64,000 nt of DNA, from the NCBI RefSeq assembly GCF_964204645.1, contig NC_134033.1:7076655-7140654 (forward strand), given 5' to 3'. How positions within the stretch are numbered: position 1 is the stretch's first letter; every line of letters starts with the position of its first letter. This DNA is from Tubulanus polymorphus (Eukaryota > Animalia > Nemertea). Of the stretch, positions 11,974 to 32,679 are shown one piece after another. The notes below the pieces were generated by a model. It ran no database searches. It had not been told where the DNA came from and saw only the letters and a program-made list of their open reading frames with translations. A program made the position numbers and the translations under genes.

Positions 11974-11993
11974 TTAATTTTTTTGTTAAATAA

Positions 11994-13238: not shown

Positions 13239-13270
13239 AATTTTAACTTAAATAAAAATATATATAATAA

Positions 13271-14002
13271 ATGGAAGGAGGTAAAGTATATAAACATATT
13301 CCATACATCGATACACATGAAAATAATGATGGTTTATATTATGTAATACCTTGTAATATAGCTTTGATATTTGATCCTATTTTCAAAATTTATAAAACTA
13401 AACTAATAGAAATCGATAATAATAAAAGTGGTGTTGTTGATAATTTAAGTAATGTAATTGATAATAATGTAATACCTTCTACATCTAATAATGTAATACC
13501 TACTACATCTAATAATGTAATACCTTCTACATCTAATAATGTAATACCTTCTACATCTAATAATGCAATAATATTAAATGTTAGTGAAAATAGAAATTAT
13601 TGTGATTATTGTAAAGGTGAATTTTCAAACGCTCCATCAAATTGGAATAAACATATGAATACAAGGGTACATATAAATAATGTTATAGAACGTGTTGGTT
13701 TAAAAGAATCTATAGAACACCCATTTAGATATGTTACAAAGTTTGTTTCAAATCAAAAAGTAAATGGTAAAGAATTATATAAAGATTTATTATTAGCAAC
13801 ACCTAATAAAGATGAATTAGATTTAACCGATGCTAATAAAATATTAGAATCAAACACTGTAAATGAAATATTAGGAGCAAACACTAATAAAGATAATAAT
13901 GAAAATGGTGCCGTATGGCACCCACATGGTGATATAGTTACAGGAAAGCGCATTGATAATAAAGATTCTATGATTCTATTCTATCAGAAAATAAAGATAT
14001 AG
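13271..14002 (+). CDS. A-specific protein with (NNVIPSTS)x4 repeat and a C2H2 finger; 3' end possibly frameshifted
   Basis: 24-bp tandem repeat ~13462-13565; CDYC-x13-H-x5-H. Confidence 0.65.
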   Translation: MEGGKVYKHIPYIDTHENNDGLYYVIPCNIALIFDPIFKIYKTKLIEIDNNKSGVVDNLSNVIDNNVIPSTSNNVIPTTSNNVIPSTSNNVIPSTSNNAIILNVSENRNYCDYCKGEFSNAPSNWNKHMNTRVHINNVIERVGLKESIEHPFRYVTKFVSNQKVNGKELYKDLLLATPNKDELDLTDANKILESNTVNEILGANTNKDNNENGAVWHPHGDIVTGKRIDNKDSMILFYQKIKI

Positions 14003-14152
14003 TTGAGATGACTAATAAGTATATCAATAAACCAATTATTTATGAAGATACGGTAGAGCATTTGAATAAATTGTTAGGGTCTGATGATGAATTGGAGAGT
14101 GATGATGAAAGTGATTCAGAAAGTAATTATCTAACACTCAAAAAGTAATAAA

Positions 14153-14500
14153 GGTTGAAAATTGGATAAAATAATAGTAAATAAAAAAGGGGGTTTTAAG
14201 TATTAAGGTACCTAATACGTATTTAATACATATCTAATACATATCTAATACGTTTTATTTGAAAATACCTTAAATTGTATTTCTTTTTTAAATTTATATT
14301 GAAACCTCAGTAATAATAAATAACCTTTATTATTTTCAAACTTATTCATATATTAGTTGAAAAAATAAAAATAAATTGGTTGAAAATTGTATAAATAATA
14401 TTTATTTTTAAAAAGGGGGTTTTAAGTAATTAAGGTATCTAATAGGGTATCAGGTATTAGGGTATCTAATATGGTATCTAATAGGGTATCTAATACATAG
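14153..14500. repeat. Duplicated non-coding cassette followed by short GGTATCTAATA-type repeats
   Basis: GGTTGAAAATTG...AAAAGGGGGTTTTAAGTA.TAAGGTA.CTAATA at ~14153-14218 and ~14378-14444, each followed by degenerate 11-12-mers. Confidence 0.75.
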
Positions 14501-14624
14501 GTATATTTTAAACATATTTCAATATTTATATTTGTATTTTATTGAAATAATTCATATATATTCATGAATAACATATAAATGAATAACTTCTAAAATCAAT
14601 TTAGTAAAAAAATATGTATAATAA

Positions 14625-15308
14625 ATGGAACCAGAACAACCACAAACTATAAATATTACAAATAATACTGGTGTCATAAACATATACTACAAGAAGTGTT
14701 CTAAATGTGAATTAGATAAATTAGCTTTAACAGAATTTAGTAAGCGTAAGATTAGCAAAGATGGTTTTCAATATTGCTGTAAAACTTGTACTAAACTATA
14801 TACCAAACAATATCGAGAGGATAATATAGAACATTATAATTATTATATGGCAGAATATATGAGAGAAAGATATAAAACAGATCTTAATTTTAGATTGAAA
14901 CAATGCTTAAGATCTAGATTAACACAATTATTCAACAAAGAAACACATTCAGAAACACTATCTAATTTATTGGGTTGTGAATTTTGTGGTAATGAATTTT
15001 TCATATCATGGATAATATATCAATTCGATGATAAAATGAATATAGATAATTATGGTGAATACTTTCATATTGATCATGTGTTGCCGATTTCTAAATTTGA
15101 CATGAATGATGAATACAATAAGAAGCTAATATGGAGCTGGAAAAATTTAAGACCTTTAGAAAAGAAGGAAAATATAATTAAATCTAATAAACTAGATATA
15201 CAGTTATATTTAGATCAACTGGATAAAGCAAAGACATTTGTTGAATTATGGAACTCAACACATAATGAAAAATACGTTGAGGAATTTGATATCAAGGATC
15301 CGAAATGA
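14625..15308 (+). CDS. HNH endonuclease of the type common in large DNA viruses (A-specific)
   Basis: N-terminal CxxC...KDG...CKxC; NYG..FHIDHVLP...NLRPL...N..KSNK. Confidence 0.8.
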   Translation: MEPEQPQTINITNNTGVINIYYKKCSKCELDKLALTEFSKRKISKDGFQYCCKTCTKLYTKQYREDNIEHYNYYMAEYMRERYKTDLNFRLKQCLRSRLTQLFNKETHSETLSNLLGCEFCGNEFFISWIIYQFDDKMNIDNYGEYFHIDHVLPISKFDMNDEYNKKLIWSWKNLRPLEKKENIIKSNKLDIQLYLDQLDKAKTFVELWNSTHNEKYVEEFDIKDPK

Positions 15309-15366
15309 CTTATCTGGACAGTTATAATTACTGCTCCTAATAGATAAACAAAAGTAGTGAGATATC
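15288..15366 (+). other. Conserved putative structured RNA/DNA element, copy in A
   Basis: Homologous to 34530-34604 on the minus strand, with compensatory stem changes. Confidence 0.55.
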
Positions 15367-15620
15367 AAATAGAATTCAAATAAAATATATTAAAAAAACA
15401 ATAACTTCAACTAGCCATTATTTCTATTTTAATTTTTGATATTTTCTTTTACAATTCTTTTCAAAAGAGAATACTTTATATCACAAATAAAAAATACTAA
15501 AAATACAATAACTAATACTAAAATTCTTTACCTTTAACTAAGCTAGTATTAATCTAAAGAGATACTGGTATCATTTGAAGAATACTTATAATATTTTTTT
15601 CGCTTTTTTCTCATATATAA

Positions 15621-16224
15621 ATGTCAAAGAAATCGAGTAAGAATAGTATTGATATTGAAAAGACATTAGATGATTTGGGTATAAGTGATAATAAAGATAC
15701 AGTTGTAACTAATTGTGCTCAAGTAAATTGTAATATTGATTATGAATACTATTTATATTGTAAGCATCATCTTCAATTATTAATTGCTGGCGGGAAATCT
15801 AAGGATTTCTTGGGAAAAATTTTAACTTATCATGAACTAGATGCTATGAAACCCGATAAAGTAATAAAACATTTTAAGATTTTATGAAGAGTCAAGATTA
15901 GCTAGAATAAATGATTCTATTTCAGATGGTATTGTCAAATGTTATTCTAAGTTATGTCACCAGTTAATACCAATTAATGATGAAAATAAATTATATAGTG
16001 ATTTGAAAAATGACTACTTAGTTATGACTGAATTACAAAAATGGGTTGGATATGCTTCATTTCAATTAGGATCGGTTATGACATTAATTTCTACTGGTGT
16101 CATAACATTTTCGAACATCAAGCCTATGGAATATAAATCAGGTAAGAACGAAACAGATGTACTACAACCAAACGTCGAAACAGAAAATGAATCAGGACAA
16201 AAATTAACTAAAATAAATGAGTGA
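15621..16224 (+). pseudogene. Homolog of the B 196-aa membrane protein (frameshifted)
   Basis: IEKTLDDLGI, YEYYLYCKH and LKNDYLVMTEL shared with 33594-34184. Confidence 0.8.
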
Positions 16225-16585
16225 TAGCGTTAAGAAGAAGCCTAGATCCGAGAAACAAATTAAATGGGCAAGAGAATTAGGTAAAAGATCTTCAGAATTA
16301 AAAAAAGCTAAGAAAAAGAAATTAACTGTTATAAATGAATCACAGAAATTATCTGATATTGATTCAAATAATAATCCATCTGATTCTTCTAATGCTGGAA
16401 GTAATTATAAATTATATATTACAATTGGATTAGTAACAGTTATTATATTATCCGGTGTAATATATAAATCAAAATTCAAATCTGATGATAAAGATGATTC
16501 CAATGATAATAAACCTATCATACCAGAAAATAAGTCAAATGATAAAGTCATTGAAAATAAACCAAGATTATTATTAATGGATTAA
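16217..16585 (+). CDS. Basic single-TM protein, A
   Basis: RS.KQI.W.R.LG motif and TM segment shared with 34132-34485. Confidence 0.75.
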   Translation: MSDSVKKKPRSEKQIKWARELGKRSSELKKAKKKKLTVINESQKLSDIDSNNNPSDSSNAGSNYKLYITIGLVTVIILSGVIYKSKFKSDDKDDSNDNKPIIPENKSNDKVIENKPRLLLMD

Positions 16586-16591
16586 AATAAG

Positions 16592-17605
16592 ATGAAAAAA
16601 GAACAATATTTTAGATATTTATATTATAACCCAGAAAGTGAAGTATCATATTCTAGCGTTTCAGAATTATGGGATAAAATTAAATCTGATAAAGAAAATG
16701 GTGCCGTACGGCACCCACACGGTGATATAAAATATAGTGAGTTAAAATCATGGTTACAAAATCAACCAACATATCAAATCCACAAGAAAATGGATGAAAC
16801 TTATTTAACAAGAAAAGTTATGGTTTCATATATCGATCAACAATGGCAAGCAGATTTAATTGACATGAAGAACTTAGAAGAATACAACAAAGGATATTTC
16901 TGGATATTATATGTTATAGAAATATTCAGTCGATACACATGGTCAATTCCAATCAAAAATAAAACTGGTATAGAAGTAACAAATGCTTTTAAATCTATAT
17001 TTAAAGAAGCAATTCCAGATAAGATACAATTTGATGAAGGTAAGGAATTTTATAACAAACATTTCAAAAAACTATTATCTGATAACGATGTAGATTATTT
17101 TTATAAAAAAGCATCTATTATAGAAAGATTTAATAAAACATTGAAAACTAGAATGTGGAAATATTTTACTGCTAATGAAACATATAAATATATCGATGTG
17201 TTAGATGATTTAGTGAAAGGTTATAATAATTCTAAACATAGTTATATAAACATGAAACCTATACAAAGTAAGAAAAGGAGATAATTCAGAAATAGTTTGG
17301 AATAATTTATATGGAGCGTTTGTTACACATGATTTCGGGGAACCTAAATTTAAAATTGGACAACACGTTAGAATATCTAAATATAGAAAAACATTTTATT
17401 AAGGTTATACCCCTAATTTTACAGAAGAAGTATTCAAGATTAAAAAGATAATATTAACTAAACCATTTGTTTATAAACTAGAAGATCTAAAAGATGAAGA
17501 AATATTAGGTTATTTCTATGAACAAGAATTATCACTTGTACCAAATCCAGATGAAATAGAATACAAAATAGAAAAAGTATTGAAAACAAAAACTCTTAAA
17601 GGAAT
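16592..17605 (+). pseudogene. Retroviral-like (rve) integrase, A; frameshifted, chromodomain truncated
   Basis: WQADLID, IQFDEGKEF, IIERFNKT catalytic D-D-E; a deletion fuses its end to the ATPase start. Confidence 0.9.
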
Positions 17606-18208
17606 AAAGATTTATTTATATTTGAACCGCATAATATGTTAGTTACTGGTGTAACCAATTGTGGAACACATTTCATATTAGATTTGTTAGAAACTATTTA
17701 TAAGAATCATTTTGATAATATAATATTATTCTGTCCTACTTATGAAATGAATAAAACATATAATAGAGATATAGTTAAGATAAAAAAGTTTATTATATTA
17801 AATCCTAAAACAGTAAAAGAAAATTTAGATAATTGTATAAAAATAGCAATTGATACTTATAAAGGATCAAATACATTATTCATTATGGATGATTGCGCTA
17901 ATTTACATGATTCAAAAGTGAGAGAAAGTGAGTTATGTTATCTAGCTTTCTCTGGAAGACATTTTGGGATAACAACATGGGTTTTAAATCAAAAATATAA
18001 TTCAATTGTTAAAGACTTTAGGGAGAATATAAGATTTCTAGTTTTATTTTATAACAAAGATAGAAAATCTATGCAACAATCATTGGAAGAAAATCAAATT
18101 ATACCTACTGAATTACATGATGAATATATGAATAAATTAAGGAATAATAAAGGTTCAAAATTATTACTGAGACTACAATTTCCCTATGAATATAAGTTTA
18201 TAAAATAA
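17603..18208 (+). pseudogene. A32/FtsK-HerA-type packaging ATPase, A; Walker A lysine missing
   Basis: GVTNCG-TH (B has GVTNCGKT), FIMDD, SGRH. Confidence 0.85.
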
Positions 18209-18239
18209 CTATTTATATATCTATTCTATAAGAGCTTAC

Positions 18240-18468
18240 ACTTTTATATTGAATAATCTGTCAATTTAAATGTTATTCATATACATGATTATTTTAAGAG
18301 TAATAGGGATAATAGGCTTTCAGGTTAAAGGTTGAATGGTCGAGTTCATTAAAAACAAAACATGAAAAGTAATTTAAAACTATAATATATTTTCATAACC
18401 GTGTGTATTTCAGTTGAATAATAGAATAATAATTATTATTAAAATATATTTGATTATATGAATTTGTG
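18240..18468. repeat. Inner part of the right TIR of element A
   Basis: Reverse complement of ~1970-2198 with few mismatches. Confidence 0.92.
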
Positions 18469-18640
18469 AGTAATTAGAAGATGGCGTTTTCAGATCAGAG
18501 GACGAGAGGACGAGACACCGCTCATCACCACAAGTAATTTTTTTTCCTAATAAATGGGGGAGAATGAACACCAACTAGAAAAACATAATGTCAATAAAAA
18601 TCAATATTATTGTCAATATTGTAAAAAATACATCGATACA
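18469..18640. repeat. Left TIR of element B, running into the pPolB 5' end
   Basis: Reverse complement of ~35147-35316; first ~75 bp essentially identical. Confidence 0.9.
18521..18556 (+). promoter_or_regulatory. 36-bp leader CTCATCACCACAAGTAAT(n)CCTAATAAATG, copy 1 of 4 (pPolB)
   Basis: Also on the minus strand at 24916-24951, 34959-34994 and 35229-35264, always ending in a start codon. Confidence 0.8.
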
Positions 18641-21600
18641 TCTAATAAAACACGACATGAAAAAACTGCAAATCATATAAAAAATGTAATAGATTTTGAA
18701 ACTCCAGAAAATTCCAATGAAAGAAAAGAACGATTAGAAAATATGAATGTGGATGAAATAAAATGTGAAGTTTGTAACGAATTTATAGTAAAAAGGAATT
18801 ATAATAGACATCTCGAATCACAAAAACATTATAAAAATTTAAATAAAAATGTTTTAGGATTAGAATATTTTGATAATAAACCTCAACAAGTAAAAGAATC
18901 AACTTCAAAAACAAAATCCATTTCAAATAAACCTTACATGGAAAATGTTAGAAATTATATTGATTCACTAGAAATAAAAGATACAATTGAAATTTTAGAA
19001 ACATTACATAGTAAAATTGGTCCTGCAGCTATTATATTTAGATTTTTTAAAGGTACAACAATAGAAGATTATAGTAAATTTAATGAAATAATAGAAAAAA
19101 TACTAGATTTTATAACAGATGTTGAATATCCAAAAATTAGTATCTCTGGGAAAGTAAGTTTTATAAAGTCAGAAGAAAAAATGGATTATAATATTCAAAC
19201 ACACTCTGAAGAAATAATTTCAAAAACACAAATAAAAGAGAAGTTAGAAAAAATATTAAATGAATTTAAACGTCATATTGAAGAAAGATATTTTGAGGGT
19301 TCTGGCTTAACATTGAATGAAATTATATATTTAGATTTAAATGTTTATAATACAAAAAGAAATAAAACATCAAAAAGTAATAAAATGTTTAAAAATAATT
19401 CAAACTTTATAATAGAAAAAGATATGAAAGCATCAAGTTATATTAAATTACCATTTTTATCAAAAGCAATTATAAATGTTAAAAATGAAGACAACAAATG
19501 TTTTCTGTGGGCAATTATTAGTTGCTTACATCCATCACAGGAAAATGTTTGTAGAATAACAGATTATCGGAAATATGAAACATTATATAAAATTGATCAA
19601 TATCCAGTAACTATAAAAATGATTCCTAAAATAGAAAAAGTTAATAATTTAAAAATAAATGTATTCGAATTAATGCAATTACCAAAGACAAAAGGTGAAA
19701 ATATTAAAGATTATACATTGGAAGCTTTATATTTAACAGAATATTATGATGATGAAAATGCTTTAGATTTGTTATATTACAAAAAAGATGAAAATGAACA
19801 TTATATGTGGTTAAAACAAATTGATTTATTCTTTAGAACAGAAAGTGATTTTAACAGCCATAAAATTTATCTATGTAGAAAATGTTTATCTAAATTTAGA
19901 ACTGAGAATACATTATTAAAACATAAAGAATTATGTGATAATAAAGATTTTTGTAAATTAATAATGCCAACAGAAAAAGATTATAAATTGAAATTTACTA
20001 ATCATAAATTTAAAAATATTGTTCCATTTGTAATTTATGGGGATTTTGAATCATTGAATAAAGAATTAACTGATCAAGATAGAAAAGAAATATATAACAA
20101 AAAGCAATTATTAAAATCAATGGATAAAGGAAGTGAATTAAATGAAGACATAATTCAAGACCCACCAATTATAAATACAATTAAAAAAGTTCATCAAAGA
20201 GCTGCTGCTTATGGAATTTATATAAAATCAAATTATCCTGAATTATATGAAAGTCAATATATTTCTTTTAGAGGTGAAAATGTAGTTAATGATTTTTGTG
20301 ATAAAATTATTGAATTAGAAAGTGATTTTGCAAAATTATTAAACAAAAATAAAAGAATAGTTATGACAAAAGAAGATGAAATTGATTTTAATTATGCAAC
20401 TCATTGTTGTTATTGTGAAAAACGTTTTTATTCATTTGATAAAAGAGTTAGAGATCATGATCATTTAAATTCAAAATATCGTGGAGCTGCTCATGAAGAT
20501 TGTAATTTACAAGCTAAAAAAGTAAATTTCGTACCAATATTATTTCATAATTTATCAGGATATGATACCCATCTATTTATAAAACAATTATCGGGAAAAT
20601 TGGGCGCAATTAATCAAGAAATAGAAGAATATAATGCTATGAATGAAGCAAATGTAAGAAAATATGATTTTAAACTATTAGCTAAAACATCTGAAAATTA
20701 TATTTCATTTCAATTTGGTTGCATTAGATTTTTAGATTCTTATAGATTTCTAGCAAGTTCATTAGATAATTCATCAAAATCATTAGTTGATAATGATTTT
20801 GTTATAACTCGATATCATTATCCAAATGACCAAGATTTTAAATTATTAAGATATAAAGGCGCAATTCCTTATTCATTTTATAAAACACATGATGATTTTA
20901 ATGTAACAGAATTATTAAAAGATCAATTTTATGATAAATTAAAAGAGGAGTATGTGAAAGACGAAGTTTTTAATAGAACATTAAATATTTGGAACCATTT
21001 TAAGATGAAAAATCATGGTGAATTAGTTGATTTATATTTAAAATCAGATGTTATGATATTGGCTGACATATTTGAAAAGTTTAGAGAAGTTAATCTAAAC
21101 CATTTTAATGTTGATCCTTGTTATTGCTACTCTAGTCCTGGTTTAACCTGGCAATGTGGTTTAAAATATACAAATGTAGAATTAGATTTATTAAAAGAAC
21201 CAGATATGGTTTTATTATTTGAAAAATCAATTAGAGGTGGAATTAGTGGTGTTATGGGAGATAGGTATTTTAAAGCAAATGATGAATATAAATTATTATA
21301 TATTGACGCCAATAATTTATATGGTTGGGCAATGATGCAACCTCAACCATATAAAAATTTTATATTAACAGAAGTTGAAAGTGATGATAAAACTAATTGG
21401 GAAAGCGCAATTATGAGTTTAGAAGATGAAGCACCAATTGGTTATTTCTTTGTAGTTGATTTAGAATATCCTGAAAATATAAAGTTTAAAACAAGAAACT
21501 TACCTTATTGCCCAGAACATTTAACTGTAGATGATAGTTATTTAAGTGAATACCAGAAGAAAATAAAACCGAAAGATCATGTTTTTACAGAAAAATTAAT

Positions 21601-23620
21601 ACTTACTCAAAATAATAAATACAATTATATTGTTCATTATAGAATGTTAAAATTTTATCTAAAACAAGGAATGAAATTAAAGAAAGTACATAGATATATT
21701 GAATTTAATCAATCGAAGTGATTAGAAAAATATATAGATTTCAATACTCAACAGAGAACAATATCAAAAAATGATTTTGAGAAGGATTTTTTTAAGTTAA
21801 TGAACAATGCATTTTATGGTAAGACTTGTGAAAACATAAGAAATAGAAATGATATTGAGTTAGTAAATGATTATGAACGATTGAGACACCTACAATCAAG
21901 TCCTAGACATTTAGGAAATAAAAGATTTGAGGATTATTTGACCGCGGTAAAATTAAAAAGAACGTCAATGAAATTTAATAAACCCATTTTCATAGGTTCA
22001 ACCGTTTTAGAAGGTTCAAAATTACTAATGTATAATTTTTATTATAATGTTTTGCAACCACTTTTTGGGGAAAAACACATAGAAATTCTATACTTCGATT
22101 CTGTAACAGCTGACACCCCAATATTATTAAAATGTAATAATAAAATATTGGTAAGAAGAATTTCAGAAATAATTCCAAAACAAAATGAATGTTATATTTT
22201 ATATGGTGAAAAAGAATTAATACAAATAAATGGATTAATGGATGTTTGGACAAGAAATGGATGGAAAAAATTAAATAATATTATTAGACATAAAACAAAT
22301 AAGAAAATCTATAGAGTTAGAACTAAATTAGGATTTGTAGATGTTACAGAAGATCATAGTTTAATTAAACAAAATGGTGATGAAATAAAACCAACTGATA
22401 TAAAAATTGGAGATGAATTATTACATAAAAGATTTTACCCAAGAATGAATCATATGTCATTTGATGAAATAATTGATAATATTTATAATATAGAACCCGA
22501 AACATTGGAAGAAAAAGAATATTTTATCAAAGGATTTTTCATGGGTGATGGTTCAGCAGGTGTGTATAATTATGTTAGTGGAACTAAATATTGTTGGTAT
22601 TTATGCAATCAAGACTTAAAATTATTAGAAAGAATTAAGAAATTCTGTGAAGAAGTTTATCCAAATAAAACATTTAGAATCATGGATGTTATGAAATCAT
22701 CAGCAGTTTATAGAATACTTGTAAATAATCCTAAAGATTTTGCTATAGAATATAATGATGAATTCTATATTCATGCAATAGTGAAAAGTAATACTTCGAC
22801 AAAAGAAAAGATAGTTCCAGATTATGTATTGAATGCAAAAAATAATTTAAGAAAATGGTTCTTCATTGGATTCTACGCAGCCGATGGTACTAAAAGTTTC
22901 AAAAACCGCAAAACAATATCTTTAGCTCAAAAAGGAAAAGTTGCTATATCAGGATTAAATATATTATGCAATTCATTAGGTTTTAATATGAATATTGGAT
23001 TGAATAAATCTAAACCAAATTGCTTTAATTTAAGCCATGTAGAAAATGAGTTAACTGAAGAAGTTAAAGATTTATTTGAAATATATAACCCATCAGATTA
23101 TGTTTATGATTTATCAACTGAAGATGGTACATTTAACTGTGGATTTCCATTAATAGCCAAAAATACTGACGCCTACATACTAAAAATCAAGACAAATGAC
23201 ATAACAAAAGACTTAAAAACATTGAAACATCATTTTGATTTTAGTAACTATCCAAAAAATCATGAACTATTTAGCAATGATAATAAAAAGATTCCTGGTA
23301 AGTTTAAAGATGAATTAGGAGGTGATGAAATGATTGAATTTGTTGGGATAAGAAGTAAAATGTATAGTTACAGAACAAAAGATCATGAAGCTAAAAAGTT
23401 AAAAGGAATAACAAAACATGTGGTTGATAAACATATAGAATTTCAAGATTATATAAAGTGTTTATATAAATCAATTGTAATGAAACACAAAATGAATTGT
23501 TTAAGATCAGAAGATCATGAGATGTACATTAATGAAGTTGAAAAAACTAGTTTAAATCCATTTGATGATAAAAGGCATATTTTAGATGATGGTATTAAAA
23601 CATTACCTTATGGCCATTAA
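18554..23620 (+). pseudogene. pPolB: Protein-primed family B DNA polymerase of B, intein-containing, with one in-frame TGA at 21719-21721
   Basis: All Exo and Pol motifs present; 18554-21721 and 21800-23620 share a frame; the TGA replaces W of QSKWLEKY in A. Confidence 0.95.
22100..23164 (+). mobile_element. Intein (355 aa) with LAGLIDADG homing endonuclease in PolB motif C
   Basis: YFD|SVTADTP...VTEDH...GFFMGDG...GFYAADG...VYDLSTEDGTF...AKN|TDAY; A has uninterrupted YFDTDSY; open frame throughout. Confidence 0.95.
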
Positions 23621-24918
23621 AACATAAAATCAATATCATCATACTCGAAATCACTATTGTCTTCTTCATTTTCATTTAATTGTTTAGGTTCTTCTTCCAC
23701 TCCATTTTTCTCATTTAAATAAAGTTCTATCTTGTTCCACATTTCATCTCGCTCTCTTTGTTTCTTTTTGTTTGTTAATTCATCAAATGGAATTATAATA
23801 TCTAGGTTTAAATAATTTACAATCTTATTTAAAAAGAATTCATAATTTATTGAATCTGTTATTCTATTTTCCAAATGATACATTAATATTTGTTTGAATA
23901 TTTTTTTTATATTTTTCATATCTTCTTCTGTTAATTTAGGTTTTTCATAATAATCGTTAAATAATAAATATAAATACATTTTCTTTTCTTTTGTGTTAAA
24001 TGTTGGTGGAATAACTGTTTTTATAATATCTTTTTTAGTTATTTCACCATTTTTATTTTCTATTATTTTCATTTTTTCAAGCCATTGCATATATTCTGGT
24101 GTATGATCTTCTATAGAAAATATTTTAAAAATTTCATCAAGATAATTTAATTTTGGATCTATAAGAAAATTTCTAGTTTTTTCTTCATCCCATAAATTCT
24201 TTTGCCATCCACAATCAACACAAAATAACACAGTACCTTCTTGTCTTAAGGTCGCATAACTACATTGTGGACATTTTCGTTTATAATTTATTGGTAATAG
24301 ATCTTCATTAAGCTCTTGGTATTTTCTTACGTTTTCTTTATGTTTTATTGTTCTATTATGTAGATTTGAATTACTTGTTGTAATAATCAATTTACAATAT
24401 TTACAATAATATGTTTTTCTTGTTAATTCATTATATTGTTTTTCTAACTTTTCAACTGTTTCTTCATTATCTGGTAACGTTTTCTCATATTTTATTTTTT
24501 CTAATAAATTATTTTTTCTTTCATTGAATTCAGTTTCAAATTTATTAGAAATTTTATCTATATGTGCTTTACGAAATTGATGATTCTCCCAATCTTCTTT
24601 ATTATCAGGACAAAATCTTATTCGACAATGCTCACATAAATTATTCTTTACATTATTCTTGTCATAAAATAAAAAAGGTCTTTTCCAAATAACTTCAGGT
24701 TCAACTTCAGCAGAATTACTATCAACATTAGCCGTTGCGCCATTAATTCTAGACTTCTCTGAATGTTTTTTAACATAATTTCTTGAGAATAATTTATTAC
24801 ATTTTGGACAGTTTATTTTAGGGGGTTTATAATTTTCATTATGTTTTTTCATATGTCGAGCCATATTACTTTTTCTTAGAAGTTCACCACAAATTTCACA
24901 TGGTATCTTCTCGTCCAT
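23617..24918 (-). CDS. Multi-C2H2-finger protein fused to a poxvirus A2/VLTF-3-like late transcription factor domain (B-specific)
   Basis: CPQC-x13-CVDC ribbon, then NFLIDPKLNYL, IFKQ...EN...INYEFFLNKI, DEMWNKI; matches vaccinia A2 as I recall it. Confidence 0.72.
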   Translation of the reverse strand: MDEKIPCEICGELLRKSNMARHMKKHNENYKPPKINCPKCNKLFSRNYVKKHSEKSRINGATANVDSNSAEVEPEVIWKRPFLFYDKNNVKNNLCEHCRIRFCPDNKEDWENHQFRKAHIDKISNKFETEFNERKNNLLEKIKYEKTLPDNEETVEKLEKQYNELTRKTYYCKYCKLIITTSNSNLHNRTIKHKENVRKYQELNEDLLPINYKRKCPQCSYATLRQEGTVLFCVDCGWQKNLWDEEKTRNFLIDPKLNYLDEIFKIFSIEDHTPEYMQWLEKMKIIENKNGEITKKDIIKTVIPPTFNTKEKKMYLYLLFNDYYEKPKLTEEDMKNIKKIFKQILMYHLENRITDSINYEFFLNKIVNYLNLDIIIPFDELTNKKKQRERDEMWNKIELYLNEKNGVEEEPKQLNENEEDNSDFEYDDIDFMF

Positions 24919-24951
24919 TTATTAGGGAAAAAAATTACTTGTGGTGATGAG
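24916..24951 (-). promoter_or_regulatory. 36-bp leader, copy 2 (VLTF-3-like gene)
   Basis: Near-exact copy of 18521-18556. Confidence 0.8.
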
Positions 24952-24975
24952 TGTAATTTTTTTATGTTATAAATA

Positions 24976-25773
24976 ATGGTAGAATTAAAAGAATACAGAA
25001 TATTTGTTGATTCTAGAAAACTTATAAATTATAAATCTCATAATTTATTAGTACAATTAGATAGAGAATTTAAGAATTGTGTAGATTTAAAATTAGTAAA
25101 TATAAGTTTATGTAATTCTTTTTATAATATATCGGATAAAACTGATGAACATAGAAGCCTTCTTATTTTTGATAAACTTGAAAAAAAATGGATTCAACTT
25201 ATGCTTACACCAGGATTATATGATTTAGAAACATTAGAGCAAGAAATTAATAGAAAAGCTCGGATTAGATTAGGTAATGGTAATTGTAAATTTAATATTA
25301 AATTCATAAAAAGTGAGAGCTCTAATAAAATTAAAATAAAGCTTGATGATGAACTTATTAAACTTGATAAATCTAATCCATTGATGACAAGAAGACATAC
25401 TTACACAGCAAAAAAACCTATAGCTAAACTATTAGGAATTACTCCAAATCAATTTGGTGGAAACAAACACGGTAACTCAAATATAATACCTTTTACACAC
25501 TTTTATATTTATTGCAATTTAATCGATCCTACAAAAACTTTCGAAGCAACTAAAGATACAACATGTAATTCTAGTATATTAAACATTTTACCATTGAAGA
25601 ATGTTAAACAATTTGGAACGCAAATAAATTATAATTTAGCTGAATGTGATTTTAAACCTTGCATTCCTCATTTTAATAATTTTAGATTAGAAATTAGAAA
25701 TCATAATGGATACTTAATTGATTTAAATAACTTTCCTGTGATATATGAATTAGTTATAAGATGTAGAGAGTAA
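24976..25773 (+). CDS. Minor capsid (penton-like) protein candidate, B
   Basis: Same motifs as 6776-7501; divergent central part. Confidence 0.65.
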   Translation: MVELKEYRIFVDSRKLINYKSHNLLVQLDREFKNCVDLKLVNISLCNSFYNISDKTDEHRSLLIFDKLEKKWIQLMLTPGLYDLETLEQEINRKARIRLGNGNCKFNIKFIKSESSNKIKIKLDDELIKLDKSNPLMTRRHTYTAKKPIAKLLGITPNQFGGNKHGNSNIIPFTHFYIYCNLIDPTKTFEATKDTTCNSSILNILPLKNVKQFGTQINYNLAECDFKPCIPHFNNFRLEIRNHNGYLIDLNNFPVIYELVIRCRE

Positions 25774-25789
25774 TTTTTTCATTATATAA

Positions 25790-26146
25790 ATGAATATAAC
25801 TGTTGGACCGAGTATATGTTTTGGATTTGATTTTAAACATGGTAAAGAAATGAAATTTAACATTAATGATGTAATAACACATATCAAAAATGTTGTATTT
25901 TCTAATGAAACAACATTTGAGTATGAAACAACAATTGATAAAGAAACTTTAAATGTAGAAAAGATTACTAATTTAATTAGAGAATCTTTAAGATTTTATG
26001 AATTAGATGAAGATTTTATCATCGATGATATTAAAAAAATAATAATTGAAATATATACAAATGAAACTAGTAATAAAATAAATGTTGAATTAATCATCAC
26101 TAAGTTAACTAAATATTTTGATGATAGTAATTTTTTTGATAAATAA
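25790..26146 (+). CDS. Conserved hypothetical protein, B
   Basis: ORF with a homolog in A and TAAATG start. Confidence 0.8.
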   Translation: MNITVGPSICFGFDFKHGKEMKFNINDVITHIKNVVFSNETTFEYETTIDKETLNVEKITNLIRESLRFYELDEDFIIDDIKKIIIEIYTNETSNKINVELIITKLTKYFDDSNFFDK

Positions 26147-26368
26147 ATGAGTGATAATAAGTGGATAATAACTGGATTATATAATGGAGCATTACTATCA
26201 GTTGGAACTGTTGGTTATTCAATGGTATTAAAAAAAGTATTCAAAATGGGAAGTGTTAATGTTGATAGATTTGATATCAATGATATTTTAAAGTTAACGT
26301 TAGCAGTTACTTTATCTAATTTAACTATTGATTATTTGGAAAAACAAAAATATATTCCTCCCATATAA
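26147..26368 (+). CDS. Small hydrophobic or membrane protein, B
   Basis: ORF with a homolog in A; two hydrophobic stretches. Confidence 0.78.
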   Translation: MSDNKWIITGLYNGALLSVGTVGYSMVLKKVFKMGSVNVDRFDINDILKLTLAVTLSNLTIDYLEKQKYIPPI

Positions 26369-26392
26369 ATGCATAATTTTTTTGCTAAATAA

Positions 26393-26815
26393 ATGGCTTC
26401 TGCAATTATAACTATTATAGGATCAGCAATTGTTAACGCTTTAGCATTTACTGGTGGTGGATATTTATTTAAACATATTGATAAAAATAGTTCATTAGGA
26501 GAACAAAGAAGACATAACTTAGCGTTAGAGAAATATAATAAAGATGCAGAAGAATATAGAGAAAAGAGACAAAACTATATGGATTACATCAATAAAGAAT
26601 TATATGATCAGAAGATTTCACATAGAGATTTTCAATCAGTTGATGATGCAATGAGTTTATATAACGCAGTAACAAATAAAGAAAAATTACATCTATACAA
26701 ACCTAAATTATCAGATTATTATACCCCAAGTAAAGAACAACAGAAATATGAAATAATATGGATTTTAGGTGGAACTGTTATTGTTATATTTGTTGCTTAT
26801 AAGTTTACTAATTAG
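26393..26815 (+). CDS. Membrane protein, B
   Basis: Hydrophobic N- and C-termini around a coiled region; homolog in A. Confidence 0.8.
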   Translation: MASAIITIIGSAIVNALAFTGGGYLFKHIDKNSSLGEQRRHNLALEKYNKDAEEYREKRQNYMDYINKELYDQKISHRDFQSVDDAMSLYNAVTNKEKLHLYKPKLSDYYTPSKEQQKYEIIWILGGTVIVIFVAYKFTN

Positions 26816-26834
26816 TAATTTTTATTCTAAATAA

Positions 26835-27269
26835 ATGGAAGATAAAGTTGATAGTATTGATATTATTCCTCATGATATAAATAAAACTAAATTAAAAACA
26901 TATTTAGAAAAACAAATATTAGAATTTGAAAGTGACTTAAAGATAAAAAAGAAAAAATATCTAAAAAGTAAAATTATATATTATCTTATTATTAGTGGTT
27001 CGGTTACAATTAGTTCTGTAATAACATTTCTAGCAATATTCAGTCCATTAACACCTTTAGCTATATCAATTGGTGTGTTAGGATTAAGTTCAAGTGTTTT
27101 AACTGGTATAAGTTCAAAATTAAATATAAAAAGTAATAAAGAAAAAATGAAAACTAATATAAAAGAAATTAATAAATTAAAGAACACACTAGATTATATA
27201 ATAAGTTTAAATGGTCATATAACAGTTGAAGAACAAGATAAATTATTAAAAGAATTAATAAATTATTAA
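26835..27269 (+). CDS. Two-TM protein, B
   Basis: Central hydrophobic hairpin flanked by basic helices. Confidence 0.8.
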   Translation: MEDKVDSIDIIPHDINKTKLKTYLEKQILEFESDLKIKKKKYLKSKIIYYLIISGSVTISSVITFLAIFSPLTPLAISIGVLGLSSSVLTGISSKLNIKSNKEKMKTNIKEINKLKNTLDYIISLNGHITVEEQDKLLKELINY

Positions 27270-27285
27270 TTTTTTAATTATATAA

Positions 27286-28701
27286 ATGGCAGATAGTTTT
27301 CCAAAAGCTTTCCAATACAATAAATCAATTAAATATAATATTCCAGCAATAGATTTTAATAAAGATATTACATATAGAAATGAAGTTTTAGATTCATTAA
27401 CTAATTTAGAAATTTATGTTACTGAAACTAATAATTTTAATGCAAAGATGGAAAATATATTTCATGTATATTTAATTAATTTTAAAAAATTGAAAGATGA
27501 AAAACAATGGTTATTAAAATCTAATATGAAGTATTGGCAGAATCAATTAAATTTTGCTGTTTATTGTGCAACAACAGGATGTGGAATTAGTTGGAATGAT
27601 CATTTGAATAATTCTAAATATAAACTAATTCAAAGTTTATTTAGATTTCATACATACTTTCAAATCAGAATAATATTAAATGAATTAGAGTGCGCTTTAC
27701 CAGGATCTAGATATTTTAAAGAATTAGATAATAATATTAATTTATCTAAGTTTTATAAAATTTGTAATGAATTTAATATAGATATAAATAATTCTGATTT
27801 TAGAACAAAAATTGGAACAATAAGATCACTTCCTTGCCCTAGAAAGATTGCAGAATATTGTGCACTTCCCATACCATCTAATAGTTTTTATAATATCTAT
27901 AATAAAAAATTAGGTTATGGTAAAATAGAAACAAACGATTTAGAAACATTAAATTTCAATAAATTACCGAAATTTTATGATCATTTAAAACAAGAAAACA
28001 ATAATGGTTGGGTTTATTTTATTTTAGAAAATAGTGAAGGTTTTACTAAATCAGGTATAGAAAGAATAAATCAATCTATTAGAACTTATTTGATTTGTAT
28101 TCTAGGATCACAAGTTGAAACAAGATCCCCAATAATTGGAAATTTAAATACATCATTTGATACACAAAAACAATTTAAAGTTTTATTTGAAGATTCAATT
28201 CATAATGATAAAAATAGATCGATTCCAGAAAACATTATAAGATATCAAAATTATTTAGATAAATCTCATGTAAGACTTAATTATTGTATAGGCCCTAATC
28301 TATTAATTATTTCTAATGATTTAGTATTAAAGATGGGAAATATAATTGGTTATAATAATCTAATTAAAACTGCAACAATAAATAATTCATTTGGATTGAA
28401 TGATATAAATAAAAAGATTATTACTGCTCCAAAATTAATGGAAGGTGAAAAAAATAAAAAACACATTCAATCAACTGAAACTAAAACTAAGAATATTAAA
28501 TTAAATAATGATTCTAAAATAAAAGATTATAATACATCAGAAAATAATAGAACTGATAATGGTGCCATATGGCACCCACACGGTGATATTCAACATGATG
28601 TAATTAAACTAAATGATGATAATAAATTCCATGAAAATACTAAATTAGCTATAACTTGTATAGGAATTGTTATAGGAGGAATATTATATTTTAAATTTTA
28701 A
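27286..28701 (+). CDS. C-terminally anchored putative virion protein, B
   Basis: 471-aa ORF, QNQLNFAVYCATTGCGIS motif, C-terminal TM; homolog in A. Confidence 0.8.
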   Translation: MADSFPKAFQYNKSIKYNIPAIDFNKDITYRNEVLDSLTNLEIYVTETNNFNAKMENIFHVYLINFKKLKDEKQWLLKSNMKYWQNQLNFAVYCATTGCGISWNDHLNNSKYKLIQSLFRFHTYFQIRIILNELECALPGSRYFKELDNNINLSKFYKICNEFNIDINNSDFRTKIGTIRSLPCPRKIAEYCALPIPSNSFYNIYNKKLGYGKIETNDLETLNFNKLPKFYDHLKQENNNGWVYFILENSEGFTKSGIERINQSIRTYLICILGSQVETRSPIIGNLNTSFDTQKQFKVLFEDSIHNDKNRSIPENIIRYQNYLDKSHVRLNYCIGPNLLIISNDLVLKMGNIIGYNNLIKTATINNSFGLNDINKKIITAPKLMEGEKNKKHIQSTETKTKNIKLNNDSKIKDYNTSENNRTDNGAIWHPHGDIQHDVIKLNDDNKFHENTKLAITCIGIVIGGILYFKF

Positions 28702-28717
28702 TTTTTTTATTATATAA

Positions 28718-30253
28718 ATGGATGTAGAAGGTGTAGAAGATATTGGAATGGATCCTTTTGATGAACCTGGTATAACTGATGAACAACCACCTGATTTTGA
28801 TGAAACAAGTTTTAATGATGGTAATGAACCAGAATATAACAATAATTTAAATATGCCTGATTATATTAAAAATGCTGAATCACAATTAAATCCTGAAAAT
28901 TTAGACCCAGATTTAGTAAAACAAGATTTAGATAATTTAAACAAAATACCTAAATTAGAAGATTTAATTGAAAAATCTAATTTTAACATAAATGATGAAG
29001 ACGTTGGACTTTTAGCAGATCAATTAAAATTTTTAGATAATGGTAAATGTTATTATCGTTTGAAAGGTGATTATTATATTGATATCACTTATAAAAATAA
29101 TAAAAATAAAATATTATCAGAATCAACTTTAGAAAAATTAAAACCAGATAGAATTAAAATAATAAGTAATAGTAATGAAATAACTGATGTTACACAAAAA
29201 GAAATAGATGATAATATAGATGTATTTAAACAAAGAATTAATGAATTATTTGAAATAATCAAAAAGAAATCAGAAACAGAAATGGAAGAGAATAGAGATA
29301 AATTAAGATCTTCAACACCCGAAACATCGAGAAGAGACACTCAACAAATTGATAATGATTTAAGTCAATCACAATTAGAAAAACGTTTAGATAACTTACT
29401 GAATAAAACTTCCAAAACTAGTAAACTTAAATCAAATAAAGTTCTAATTGAAAAACTTTTACCGAATGGATTACTTGATGCAACAGATCAAGAATTAGAA
29501 GATTTAGATATATTTTCTGATAAAGCAATTAGAGAAATTATTAGTATAAGACTTGCATCTGATAAAATTGCGCATAATAAAAGTATAAGAGATCAAAAAA
29601 TTACGTATTTGGAAAAAGAATTAACTGATAAAAATAAAGAAATAGAACAACTAAAGTCTGATTTAGATCATCAAGTAATTGATGAAATAGAATATAGGCA
29701 AAAAGAATTACGTTTAGAAAAAGAAATTAGTAATTTAAAAGATAATTTAGAAGTACAGAAAGAAGAAATTAAATTATTGTTAAAATCATATGATTATAAT
29801 ATTAATAGATTAAAAGTTATTTTTAAAGATTTGTTGATTAAACCAAATTCTGACATATCACTAAAAGATAGAATAAGATTATTATTTAAATTAGAAGGAA
29901 TAACAATTCTTTCAATTCTAACATCTGTAACTATGTTATTTACAACAATTGGTTTAGCTATATCAAATGCTTTGAAATCTACTCCTACTCCCAATAAACC
30001 AGATAAACCTCCAGGAAATAATTCTATACAAGATAAAGTTAAGGATGGTTTAAAGAAATTAGCAAAATATTTATGGGAACTATCTAAAAAATCTGCTGCA
30101 GCTTTACCAGGAGTTATTGCTTCAATTGTTGGTTTTATATTGAAATCTGCAGGAAACATTATTAACTTTGCTGCTGAACATATTATTTTATTTTTAATTA
30201 CAGTTGTAAGTGCTATTATTTTTGGGTTAGTGAATATGATTAAAAATAAATAA
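28718..30253 (+). CDS. Acidic/coiled-coil protein with C-terminal TM helices, B
   Basis: 511-aa ORF with heptad-rich middle and 2-3 hydrophobic helices. Confidence 0.8.
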   Translation: MDVEGVEDIGMDPFDEPGITDEQPPDFDETSFNDGNEPEYNNNLNMPDYIKNAESQLNPENLDPDLVKQDLDNLNKIPKLEDLIEKSNFNINDEDVGLLADQLKFLDNGKCYYRLKGDYYIDITYKNNKNKILSESTLEKLKPDRIKIISNSNEITDVTQKEIDDNIDVFKQRINELFEIIKKKSETEMEENRDKLRSSTPETSRRDTQQIDNDLSQSQLEKRLDNLLNKTSKTSKLKSNKVLIEKLLPNGLLDATDQELEDLDIFSDKAIREIISIRLASDKIAHNKSIRDQKITYLEKELTDKNKEIEQLKSDLDHQVIDEIEYRQKELRLEKEISNLKDNLEVQKEEIKLLLKSYDYNINRLKVIFKDLLIKPNSDISLKDRIRLLFKLEGITILSILTSVTMLFTTIGLAISNALKSTPTPNKPDKPPGNNSIQDKVKDGLKKLAKYLWELSKKSAAALPGVIASIVGFILKSAGNIINFAAEHIILFLITVVSAIIFGLVNMIKNK

Positions 30254-30273
30254 TTAATTTTTTTGTTTAATAA

Positions 30274-31521
30274 ATGAGTGGGAGTTATATAAGTCCTTCT
30301 AAGATTTCTAGAATATCTAATGCTATTAAAGCAGAAAGATCACATCATATAATTACTCATAACCCTTCAAATATTAATCCTGATGAAACTTTATATGTTA
30401 GAATCCCTCAATTAACACAAAATACTTTTTATGTTCCAAACAGTATTTATTTATCAGCTGATATAAAAGTAATCGGTAATAATAATAATTATGTCGTTGA
30501 TAATGTTGGAAGATATTTGATTAAAAAGTTAACAATAAAGATTGGTCCAGAAACAGTTTTCTCATTAGATGATTATAATTTATTTATGCATTATAAAGAT
30601 TTATGGTTAACTAAAGAAAATAGAAATAATATGATATTTCAAGGCATCCAATCAGAAAACCAAAATAAATTAAGATCAGAAGCTAATAACGCAATATTAA
30701 CAAATGATGTAGATAAATTGATAAAAAGTATATATGGAAGCAAATATAAAATTCCATTAGACTTTGAATTGATAAATAATAATGCACCTTTATATAAATA
30801 CGCAATTCAAGAAGATATTATATTTGAGATAACATTTGCTCCTGTAAATGAAATTGTATTATCTAGCGTTGTTAAAGATATGAGTTATAAATTATCGAAT
30901 ATATGTTTAGAATATGATACAGTAACTGATGAAAATATTGCTAGCACAATTCAAACTCAATACAATCAAGGATTTTCATTATTATATGATTATATTGATA
31001 AATTTAAAACTGTAACTATTAATGCAAATGATGAAATAATAAATGAGAATATTAACTTCCCAAGAAGATCTATTAAAGGTATATTAATATTTTTTACCAT
31101 TGGAACGTATACTAATGGTGCAATAAATGTTGATAATTATTATAATCCTGAAATAACAAAAGTAGAAATAACTATCGAAGGAATAGCAAATAAAATATTT
31201 TGTCAAGGAATGAGAATGATAGATCAATGGGTAGAAATTAAAAAACATTTTATGAATGAAAAAGTAAAATCATTTGAAAATTGTAACATTAATCAAATTG
31301 ATTATTATACCGGTAATAAATATGCATTATGGTTAGATTTTAGAACAACTGAAGATAATTCATTACATGGTTCTGGAAAAAAACTACAGAACACTAAAGA
31401 TGGAATACAATTATTTATGAAAAAGAAAAAGGGAATCAAAAATTTTAAAATGCATATTTATATTATATCTGATGCGCAATTAAATATTATAAATTCACAA
31501 TTAGATAGTATTCAATATTAG
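30274..31521 (+). CDS. Major capsid protein candidate (double jelly-roll expected), B
   Basis: 415 aa, beta-rich, highly conserved between A and B, size and position as expected; fold not verified. Confidence 0.75.
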   Translation: MSGSYISPSKISRISNAIKAERSHHIITHNPSNINPDETLYVRIPQLTQNTFYVPNSIYLSADIKVIGNNNNYVVDNVGRYLIKKLTIKIGPETVFSLDDYNLFMHYKDLWLTKENRNNMIFQGIQSENQNKLRSEANNAILTNDVDKLIKSIYGSKYKIPLDFELINNNAPLYKYAIQEDIIFEITFAPVNEIVLSSVVKDMSYKLSNICLEYDTVTDENIASTIQTQYNQGFSLLYDYIDKFKTVTINANDEIINENINFPRRSIKGILIFFTIGTYTNGAINVDNYYNPEITKVEITIEGIANKIFCQGMRMIDQWVEIKKHFMNEKVKSFENCNINQIDYYTGNKYALWLDFRTTEDNSLHGSGKKLQNTKDGIQLFMKKKKGIKNFKMHIYIISDAQLNIINSQLDSIQY

Positions 31522-31551
31522 AAATATAAAGTTAAAATTAAGGATATATAA

Positions 31552-32679
31552 ATGGGAGGTAAAAAAACCCCTAATACTAAAGAACAATATTTAAGAAATT
31601 TATATTACAACCCTGAGAGTTCGGTTGCTTATTCTTCTACTAAAAATATATGGCGTAAAGTAAAACAAGATAAATTAGATAAGATAATCCCACAAAATTT
31701 AGTTAAATATAAAGATATAAATGAATTTATGTTAGAACAACCAACGTATACAACACATAAAAAAATTGTTAGAAAATATAAAACTCGTAAAACTATGGTA
31801 AGTTATGTAGATCAACAGTGGCAAGGAGATTTAATTGATATGAAAAATCTTAAAAAAGATAATAATGATTATTGGTGGATATTGAATATAATTGATATTT
31901 TTAGTCGTTATGTATGGAGTTTCCCACTTTATAGAAAAGATGCTGCACAAACATCACATGTTTTAAGAAAATTTCTTTCAGGTGGTAAACTAAAACCAGA
32001 AAAAATTCAATTTGATGATGGAAAAGAGTTTGATAATTCATTTGTTCATGAACTCTTAGATAATCATAATATTAAATATTTTTCAACAAAATCGGATAAA
32101 AAAGCAGCAGTTGTTGAACGATTTAATAGAACATTAAGAACAAGAATGTGGAAATATTTTACAGCAAATAATACTTTTAAATGGATTGATGTTTTACCAA
32201 AATTGATAGAAGGATATAATAATTCTTATCATTCTTCTATTGGAATGAAACCTATTGATGCTAGAAAATCTGAAAATGCTGAAATTGTTTGGAATAATTT
32301 ATATGGAGCATTTCTTATAGATGATTTTGGTGAACCTAAATTTAAAGTTGGTCAAAATGTTAGAATTTCTAAGTATAAAAAGATATTTGATAAAGGATAC
32401 GATCGAAATTTTACTAGAGAAATATATAAAATAAAAAAGGTAATAACAACAAAACCATATGTCTATAAATTAGAAGATTTAGATGGTGAAGAAGTTGATG
32501 GATATTTTTACGAAGAAGAATTAAGTTTAACTACTGAAAATCTAGAACAAGAATATAAAATTGAAAAAGTATTAAAAACAAAAACTGTTAAAAGAAAAAA
32601 ATATTCTTTAGTAAAATGGGTTGGATGGCCAGATAAATTCAATGAATGGATATTATCAAGTAAAATTAAAAATATATAA
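31552..32679 (+). CDS. rve integrase with C-terminal chromodomain, B
   Basis: WQGDLID, IQFDDGKEF, VVERFNRT; YKIEKVLK...LVKWVGWPDKFNEWI. Confidence 0.95.
   Translation: MGGKKTPNTKEQYLRNLYYNPESSVAYSSTKNIWRKVKQDKLDKIIPQNLVKYKDINEFMLEQPTYTTHKKIVRKYKTRKTMVSYVDQQWQGDLIDMKNLKKDNNDYWWILNIIDIFSRYVWSFPLYRKDAAQTSHVLRKFLSGGKLKPEKIQFDDGKEFDNSFVHELLDNHNIKYFSTKSDKKAAVVERFNRTLRTRMWKYFTANNTFKWIDVLPKLIEGYNNSYHSSIGMKPIDARKSENAEIVWNNLYGAFLIDDFGEPKFKVGQNVRISKYKKIFDKGYDRNFTREIYKIKKVITTKPYVYKLEDLDGEEVDGYFYEEELSLTTENLEQEYKIEKVLKTKTVKRKKYSLVKWVGWPDKFNEWILSSKIKNI

Follow-up and report, generated by a model that had tools for sequence, protein, structure and literature searches.

How did an intein come to sit in the catalytic motif of a DNA polymerase encoded by endogenous viral DNA in a eukaryotic nucleus, and is it likely to splice and to move? 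The question is raised by a stretch of 64,000 nucleotides labelled Tubulanus polymorphus (Animalia, Nemertea; contig NC_134033.1, positions 7,076,655 to 7,140,654 of the forward strand), referred to below as the window, in which the gene for a protein-primed DNA polymerase of family B (pPolB) of a Polinton-type element is interrupted at positions 22100 to 23164. Our answer, to which we assign a probability of roughly 0.75, is that the insert is a complete intein in motif C of a Polinton polymerase, that it is predicted to splice, that it likely spreads by cutting empty alleles, and that it was probably acquired from a giant virus in one ancient capture. The allele is a known one, but its host is of a new kind: the polymerase is that of Polinton-type elements, protein-primed, and the nuclear DNA around it is likely that of an animal.

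A full-length intein in motif C

The insert consists of 355 codons without a stop, which in translation are in frame within the polymerase gene (plus strand) and separate the YFD and TD residues of family B polymerase motif C. This is the Pol-c site, as the original prediction had stated, and the closest kin of the insert occupy the same D|TD position. The inserted sequence starts with SVTADTP and ends with GFPLIAKN followed by Thr+1; between the two it carries, in this order, the motifs VTEDH, GFFMGDGS, GFYAADG and VYDL. Ser1, Asn355 and Thr+1, the terminal residues of a class 1 intein, are all present. The N-terminal Hint region (22100-22429) opens with Ser1 (22100-22102) and contains block B Thr83 (22346-22348) and His86 (22355-22357), as well as an Arg63-His64 pair which is the likely site of the motif NX histidine (His codon 22289-22291). 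It is followed by a two-motif LAGLIDADG endonuclease (residues about 136-312; 22505-23035), with Asp150 (22547-22549) in GFFMGDGS and Asp262 (22883-22885) in GFYAADG, and by the C-terminal Hint region (23057-23167), which holds block F Asp337 (23108-23110), the shortened FNCGFPLI end, Lys354-Asn355 and Thr+1 (23165-23167).

Profile searches matched the insert to NCBIfam TIGR01445 (intein_Nterm; 30.2 bits, over its cut-off of 24.5) and to Pfam LAGLIDADG_3 (E 1.3e-7, over cut-off). A model of the intein, built with AlphaFold from a 76-row alignment, reached a predicted local distance difference test (pLDDT) score of 93.1 and a predicted template modelling (pTM) score of 0.92. When it was compared to known structures with Foldseek, the top matches were inteins: TliVMA (7qsu, E 2e-18) and PI-PkoII (2cw7, E 4.5e-17) were the closest folds in the PDB, with PhoVMA, PI-PfuI and PI-SceI also among the top matches, and I-DmoI also figured among the fold matches. 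Comparison with viral models gave DNA polymerases of a phycodnavirus, Pandoravirus, Marseillevirus and Megavirus as the best named matches. The insert is confirmed as the real, full-length intein that had been proposed from its letters; a chance resemblance is ruled out by the profiles, by the modelled fold and by the exact empty allele of a related copy (see below). A hedgehog-type Hint domain was ruled out by the presence of both splice junctions, of the endonuclease and of an empty allele (see below).

Ser1, His64, Thr83 and His86 were unchanged in 76/76 aligned relatives, and block F Asp337 was as invariant in these rows as Thr83 and His86. In the 13 pPolB inteins that were aligned, all of Ser1, His64, Thr83, His86, Asp150, Asp262, Asp337 and Asn355 were invariant (13/13), while their overall identity to the window intein was only 43-63%; the endonuclease region was conserved to the same degree as the splicing region (44-61% versus 43-70%). 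The Arg-His pair of the window intein aligns with the RH of PI-PkoII, and fits motif NX of cysteine-less (Ser1) inteins, in which a His following Arg or Lys is required for splicing according to PMC10189870.

The host gene, its empty sister and the integrity of the assembly

The element consists of two related units, and the polymerase gene of the second (copy B) extends from 18554 to 23620 on the plus strand. The open reading frame (ORF) 21800-23620, in which the intein was originally noticed, does contain it; as a whole gene this frame was rejected, being merely the C-terminal part of an interrupted one. The interruption is a single in-frame stop upstream of the intein (21719-21721), and copy B is therefore unable to make a full-length polymerase. 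Relatives of its polymerase numbered 4083 at E<=0.001. PF03175 gave no match in the N-terminal part of the copy B polymerase itself; relatives do match it, and the match of P0002 and P0003 to Pfam DNA_pol_B_2 bears out the protein-primed host that had been suggested.

About 16 kb upstream, the polymerase gene of the first unit (copy A; 2494-6375, plus strand) serves as a natural control: its motif C, ILYFD|TDSY, is uninterrupted, the site lying empty at 5829|5830. This gene too carries a stop (5137-5139), and its 5' end is disrupted. Across the site, the spacing of the A-to-B repeat jumps from 16270 to 17335, exactly 1065 nt. The two polymerases share 61-76% amino acid identity, and copy B belongs to a multi-copy family, of which it is a recent member that has suffered damage.

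Read mapping had been named in the original prediction as a way to expose a contaminated or misassembled region. The intein is covered by raw whole-genome shotgun reads that carry an identical species label but come from a different study (X5; 1.93 Gb, about 12% of the run). Their summed depth was 220, 224 and 138 in three bins inside it, a range of 138-224, and 137-296 in four neighbouring bins, which argues against an assembly artefact; if the genome is at least 200 Mb in size, this depth amounts to at least 14 intein-bearing copies. The N-terminal junction was bridged by two contig pieces (X2 record 10 and X4 record 19, from one sample), the C-terminal junction by none among the 24 contig pieces listed, and there was no read joint skipping the intein among the 15 listed of 65. 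Read variants shown inside the intein were four (two synonymous, two not), too few for a selection test. No RNA run was listed as containing the stretch, a result without bearing on its expression. The odd internal inverted repeats of the composite element, described below, could be taken as a sign that giant-virus DNA was fused to a Polinton by contamination or misassembly. We give this next to no chance, as the element is bounded by terminal repeats that match at 97% and by a 6-bp duplication that is exact, the guanine-plus-cytosine (GC) content of the intein (25%) is matched by that of its exteins (23-27%), the intein is covered by reads of another study and its N-terminal junction by contig pieces, and the same intein clade is found at the same site in many independent ones.

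Predicted splicing

Judged by the residues in place, splicing would follow class 1 ester (oxyester) chemistry: Ser1 would attack the upstream bond, aided by His64 of motif NX and by Thr83/His86, the N-extein would be passed to Thr+1, and Asn355 would then cyclise with Lys354, rather than a His, at its side. Excision would rejoin the two aspartates of motif C, and the polymerase would be functional only afterwards. The window intein is probably active.

Several observations speak against this. The penultimate His is absent, as had been pointed out from the start, with Lys354 in its stead; Gly343 stands where many relatives carry the block F His; the match to Pfam Intein_splicing (E 3e-7, 30.8 bits) stays under the cut-off of 35.8; and the host gene carries the upstream stop. 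The C-terminal step, with its penultimate Lys and its Gly at the block F His, is the weak point of the splicing model. Among the 29 full-length pPolB inteins collected (see below), the penultimate residue is His in 23, Lys in 5 and Ser in 1. The stop in copy B and the two missing C-terminal histidines could also be expected of a degenerate, splicing-dead passenger, residing in defunct copies and retained by drift alone, as could the fact that many database members are fragments. We nevertheless give such a passenger very little credence: the 355-aa frame is open, the catalytic residues are invariant at the low overall identity given above, and all of the 22 giant-virus inteins which share the short C-terminal signature described in the next section have a Lys-Asn end. 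In addition, uninterrupted intein-bearing polymerases of 1504-1693 aa are at hand (P0002, P0003, P0005, P0009 and P0010), in families of near-identical copies (at least six other members in the P0003 cluster). An intein that is predicted to splice thus remains the preferred reading.

Relatives of the intein and its origin

From the collected proteins and loci 175 full-length inteins were extracted, 176 with that of the window, nearly all of them inserted at D|TD of PolB motif C. Their hosts are 29 protein-primed polymerases (three of these assignments rest on cluster membership) and 144 RNA-primed family B polymerases (PolB), with 3 inteins elsewhere; the survey of pPolBs for inserts at this site, suggested in the original prediction, thereby yielded 29 full-length inteins, the window's included. 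The closest inteins reside at the same site in other protein-primed polymerases, with identities to the window intein of 63% (P0002), 50% (P0003, a cluster of 136), 49% (P0005), 46-48% (P0139-P0143) and 40-42% (P0145, P0147, P0009 and P0010), and of 75% over residues 195-355 in the fragment P0390. Inteins of giant-virus polymerases come next (P0015, 43%; L001 and L002, 41-42%; Mimivirus P0085, 37%). The suggestion that the window intein closely follows that of Mimivirus was thus not upheld, and Mimivirus was rejected as the closest relative: its 37% compares with 40-63% for inteins in other protein-primed polymerases. That the nearest relatives outside Polintons are giant-virus PolB inteins did hold, in sequence matches, in the tree and in the viral fold matches.

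An intein tree was calculated from 59 rows, chosen from 121 non-redundant ones. Ten pPolB inteins form one clade in it (100/100), the sister of which consists of 12 giant-virus-type inteins (97/96); in a tree of 43 rows, to which archaeal inteins were added, the 8 pPolB rows again form one clade (100/100), with a sister link of 87/91. A single origin of the pPolB inteins is well supported. The expectation that an intein tree would lead to giant viruses was correct for the sister group, but the nearest relatives are other pPolB inteins. The C-terminal end FxxG(F/Y)PLIxxN, shorter by one residue, was found in 29/29 pPolB inteins and in 22/144 RNA-primed PolB inteins, the latter subgroup being the sister group in both trees, and the family would have originated in a single transfer from the giant-virus subgroup with this end. 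As to direction, a transfer out of a giant virus into a Polinton is the reading that we favour; it is that of the best tree, though not statistically forced.

Weighing against it, the approximately unbiased (AU) test rejected neither trees in which the pPolB inteins fall outside the giant-virus-type ones altogether (p 0.29) nor the Mimivirus group as their sister (p 0.18); a quick search with 37 rows missed the clade of pPolB inteins plus subgroup, which scored higher when imposed; and two archaeal-labelled bins hold related inteins (L123 and L126). The outside placement, and the related Pol-c inteins in Promethearchaeota and uncultured archaeon bins, would suit a transfer in the reverse direction, from Polinton to giant virus, or another carrier such as an archaeal or phage PolB. 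We consider both improbable, since RNA-primed PolB inteins outnumber those of pPolBs (144 vs 29) and surround the pPolB clade in the two careful trees, and since the restriction of the short C-terminal signature to 22 of those 144 fits a derived trait. Capture from a giant virus therefore stays our preferred origin. The jump appears to have happened once, long ago, at the root of the Polinton intein clade, and the co-residence of the host with a giant virus, which had been deduced from it, is not implied.

The two archaeal-labelled inteins, L123:10001-11008 and L126:8531-9538, are Pol-c inteins that fall amid the giant-virus-type ones and not with other archaeal inteins. Also among the relatives are P0004, P0006-P0008, P0011, P0100 and P0195; several RNA-primed polymerases are long and high-scoring. 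P0004 contains three related intein copies, and related inteins were found in a topoisomerase II-like protein (P0100) and in an unassigned one (P0195), these three cases suggesting that the family is capable of non-allelic jumps. Polinton-type polymerases also appear under bacterial names (P0145 from a clam symbiont bin, P0279 from Sulfurimonas), likely as eukaryotic DNA in bacterial bins. Exteins of the window's pPolB type were found in none of 212 loci from viral, metagenome and prokaryote collections, scans of DNA collections with P0002 and with the capsid candidate of the element returned no relative, and the five loci from a degenerate motif scan were one giant-virus PolB and four chance matches.

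Signs of homing between Polinton copies

The 120 polymerases nearest to the N-terminal part of copy B included 88 with an empty site, 2 with an occupied one and 30 without coverage of the site. In an extein tree of 54 chosen rows (13 occupied and 41 empty; intein columns dropped), the presence of the intein requires 8 changes, all forced by well-supported branches. The nearest neighbour of copy B in this tree, P0269, is empty, and the occupied P0143/P0244 and the empty P0247 are identical across the 274 columns kept. P0005 belongs to another polymerase class, its exteins having a strong PF03175 match and no BLAST match to those of copy B, yet its intein is nested within the pPolB clade (in a 5-row group, 97/95, of the 43-row tree).

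In the P0003 family, seven occupied members are distinguished from four empty ones by 11 diagnostic positions of 1191, and 10 of these 11 residues fall within the stretch from -7 to +44 around the site, in rows that are not independent of each other. The exteins of P0003 and of the empty P0132 are identical at 229/231 positions upstream, at 48/61 at the site and at 96/100 downstream. Co-conversion in the course of homing would be expected to leave such a pattern, which, like the patchy presence of the intein, points to homing between Polinton copies. A small hint in the same direction may be seen in the junction, which reads KN|TDA in copy B and P0390 and D|TDS in copy A and P0269-P0272.

The LAGLIDADG domain (Asp150 and Asp262) would cleave the DNA of an empty motif C, and repair off an intein-bearing copy would transfer the intein along with some of its flank. 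Multi-copy Polinton families within one nucleus would go on providing empty targets, and this would account for an endonuclease that has stayed intact. Following its origin, the intein would have spread among Polinton subfamilies and into the second polymerase class, represented by P0005.

Two results do not favour this scheme: only 4/10 of the tract residues in P0003 match the putative donor subfamily, with the donor itself not in hand, and copies A and B show no co-conversion gradient at the DNA level (32-56 matches per 60 nt, trendless). Under one possible alternative, the intein was gained a single time in the distant past, then inherited vertically and lost repeatedly; it would still splice, and its endonuclease would no longer spread it. 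Some deeper groups do agree between the intein and extein trees (P0009/P0010/P0145/P0147; window and P0002 in an 18-row extein clade), the change counts are blind to gain versus loss, and a tract beside the site could stem from ordinary recombination between Polinton subfamilies. We regard this alternative as unlikely, as it would require many exact losses to leave 88 of the 90 nearest site-covering polymerases empty, and would have to accommodate the nesting of the P0005 intein in the clade, the invariance of the catalytic Asp residues of the endonuclease, and a P0003 tract that is centred on the insertion site. Spread by homing remains the likely course. For the fuller proposition, namely a working family of self-splicing homing inteins in animal nuclear DNA, derived from one giant-virus capture, moving among germline Polintons, having crossed two polymerase classes and rendering Polinton replication dependent on splicing, we would put the odds at only a little better than even.

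In one subfamily, empty polymerases (P0286, P0298 and others) often have D|CDS, and not D|TDS, at the site; this could change the target of the endonuclease and represent a resistance allele.

Comparison to known systems

The best-known counterparts are the PolB position III, or Pol-c, inteins of giant viruses (Nucleocytoviricota), e.g. Mimivirus R322 (PMC549080), with which the window intein shares the D|TD site, the Ser1/Asn/Thr+1 residues, two LAGLIDADG motifs, a length of about 350 aa and the Lys-Asn end. Unlike these, it resides in the protein-primed polymerase of an integrating 16-17-kb element and not in the RNA-primed polymerase of a large virus, its C-terminal signature is one residue shorter, and it exists in many nuclear copies. 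Activity of the Mimivirus intein is presented in the accessible part of that source as predicted and not demonstrated. The best fold matches, the archaeal Ser1 inteins PI-PkoII and TliVMA (TM score 0.63-0.65), have the NX-type Arg-His and the block B Thr/His in common with the window intein; they differ in sequence (13-18% identity), whereas penultimate Lys, lack of the block F His and a eukaryotic nuclear context are peculiar to the latter.

In Polinton/Maverick pPolBs, inserted HNH or VSR endonuclease domains are described in PMC10748475 and PMC11161782, the latter proposing that they derive from intein invasions. They too are endonuclease domains inside a Polinton polymerase, but at other positions; here, a complete Hint plus LAGLIDADG intein is located in a catalytic motif, and its removal is needed for activity. 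As far as the accessible text of PMC10710043 goes, Klebsormidium, Tetrabaena and Honda have intein-bearing viral-like DNA polymerases on scaffolds of their nuclear genomes, where the intein likewise enters the eukaryotic nucleus within endogenous viral DNA; those hosts are two algae and a labyrinthulomycete, and polintons, animals and metazoa are not mentioned there. Within the text accessible for each source, the words "intein" and "LAGLIDADG" do not occur in the main text of PMC10748475, "polinton" is absent from the eukaryotic intein surveys PMC5784728 and PMC10710043, "intein" is absent from PMC8502044 and bioRxiv 10.64898/2026.10.13.758929 and has 0 occurrences in a coral polintovirus paper (PMC11131425), and PMC12220804 and PMC5718144 mention inteins in general terms only. 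We found no earlier account of a Polinton polymerase carrying an intein with Hint and LAGLIDADG parts in the open literature, a scope outside which subscription journals, Repbase, InBase and supplements fall.

A review describes metazoan genomes as devoid of inteins (PMC8529194). If the host of the element is an animal, the window intein is a qualified exception, being located in endogenous viral DNA and not in a host gene. The original placement in an animal-type nuclear genome stands in the same measure: the DNA is nuclear and likely animal, but the intein belongs to an endogenous viral element. The intein may be considered a molecular record that Polintons and giant viruses were once in contact, and it makes the invasion of Polinton polymerases by inteins, as suggested in PMC11161782, open to testing. 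Since occupied and empty alleles occur next to each other, the persistence of a homing endonuclease among many dispersed copies in one genome can be studied here in a natural setting. The family is also a source of mesophilic inteins that use Ser/Thr chemistry and vary naturally between His, Lys and Ser at the penultimate position, of use for studies of mechanism and for protein engineering.

The Polinton-type element and its surroundings

Polintons (Mavericks) are marked by AG...CT terminal inverted repeats, a 6-bp target duplication, a protein-primed PolB, a retroviral-type integrase, an A32 ATPase and a double jelly-roll major capsid protein. The element in the window (1740-35557) is a 33.8-kb composite with terminal repeats of about 240 bases. 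Its left terminal inverted repeat (1740-1975, plus strand) begins with AG and is 97% complementary to the right one (35317-35557, minus strand), which ends with CT on the plus strand; the two are flanked by the copies of the target-site duplication, CGAAGG (1734-1739 and 35558-35563, plus strand). In 2-kb bins, GC content is 21-29% within the element versus 34-50% outside it. Polymerase, rve integrase and A32 ATPase are encoded in both of the tandem units, A (about 2200-18240) as well as B (about 18300-35557). In unit B, the plus strand encodes a 415-aa candidate capsid protein (30274-31521), a retroviral-type integrase with a chromodomain (31552-32679; Pfam rve E 1.2e-9, Chromo E 2e-4) and an A32-type packaging ATPase reading frame (32776-33288; Pox_A32 E 3.6e-6); in unit A, a frameshifted integrase and the ATPase occupy 16592-18208 on the same strand (rve E 1.2e-8, Pox_A32 E 3.3e-8). 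The capsid candidate, a putative major capsid protein, is 91% identical to its counterpart in copy A; it had no match in Pfam, NCBIfam or PDB, and its single-sequence fold had a pLDDT of 32. No adenain-type maturation protease was found with Pfam among the ORFs of at least 120 aa in the element, a search which a diverged or broken gene could escape, and the element is therefore called Polinton-type and not filed as an adintovirus (PMC8502044).

The left terminal repeat of unit B apparently encloses unit A: 1740-1975 and 18469-18638 jointly match the right end. Segments 1970-2201 and 18237-18468 are inverted repeats of each other at 97% and contain inward-facing element termini, and 1740-2139 alone is a 76% palindrome. 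This arrangement is no plain nested insertion, and possibly reflects a template switch during replication. A 433-aa zinc-finger reading frame (23617-24918, minus strand) is present in unit B only. A 44-base repeat at its 5' end recurs at 18521-18564, just ahead of the start of the polymerase, and two more times close to the right end, and is likely a shared promoter or start signal. Unit A has, between capsid candidate and integrase (13271-15308), frames of 243 and 227 aa that are both missing from unit B; the latter, which has no Pfam match, resembles an HNH-type endonuclease.

The element has split a degraded host-side gene, pieces of which lie on either side of the target duplication (485-1733 and 35564-36027); it has no Pfam match, and we assume it to resemble the gene of a tyrosine-recombinase-type DNA transposon. 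Rfam gave no match in the flanks, which contain a long terminal repeat (LTR) retrotransposon, a long interspersed nuclear element (LINE) reverse transcriptase, and Mutator-like element (MULE) and OTU reading frames. The surroundings are repeat-rich eukaryotic nuclear DNA, likely that of an animal, and their repeats resemble those of marine invertebrates. The LTR retrotransposon (44256-48801) is degraded, with gag, protease, reverse transcriptase, RNase H and integrase; repeats of 300 bases or longer at 41962 and 50413, which are 95% alike, are probably its LTRs.

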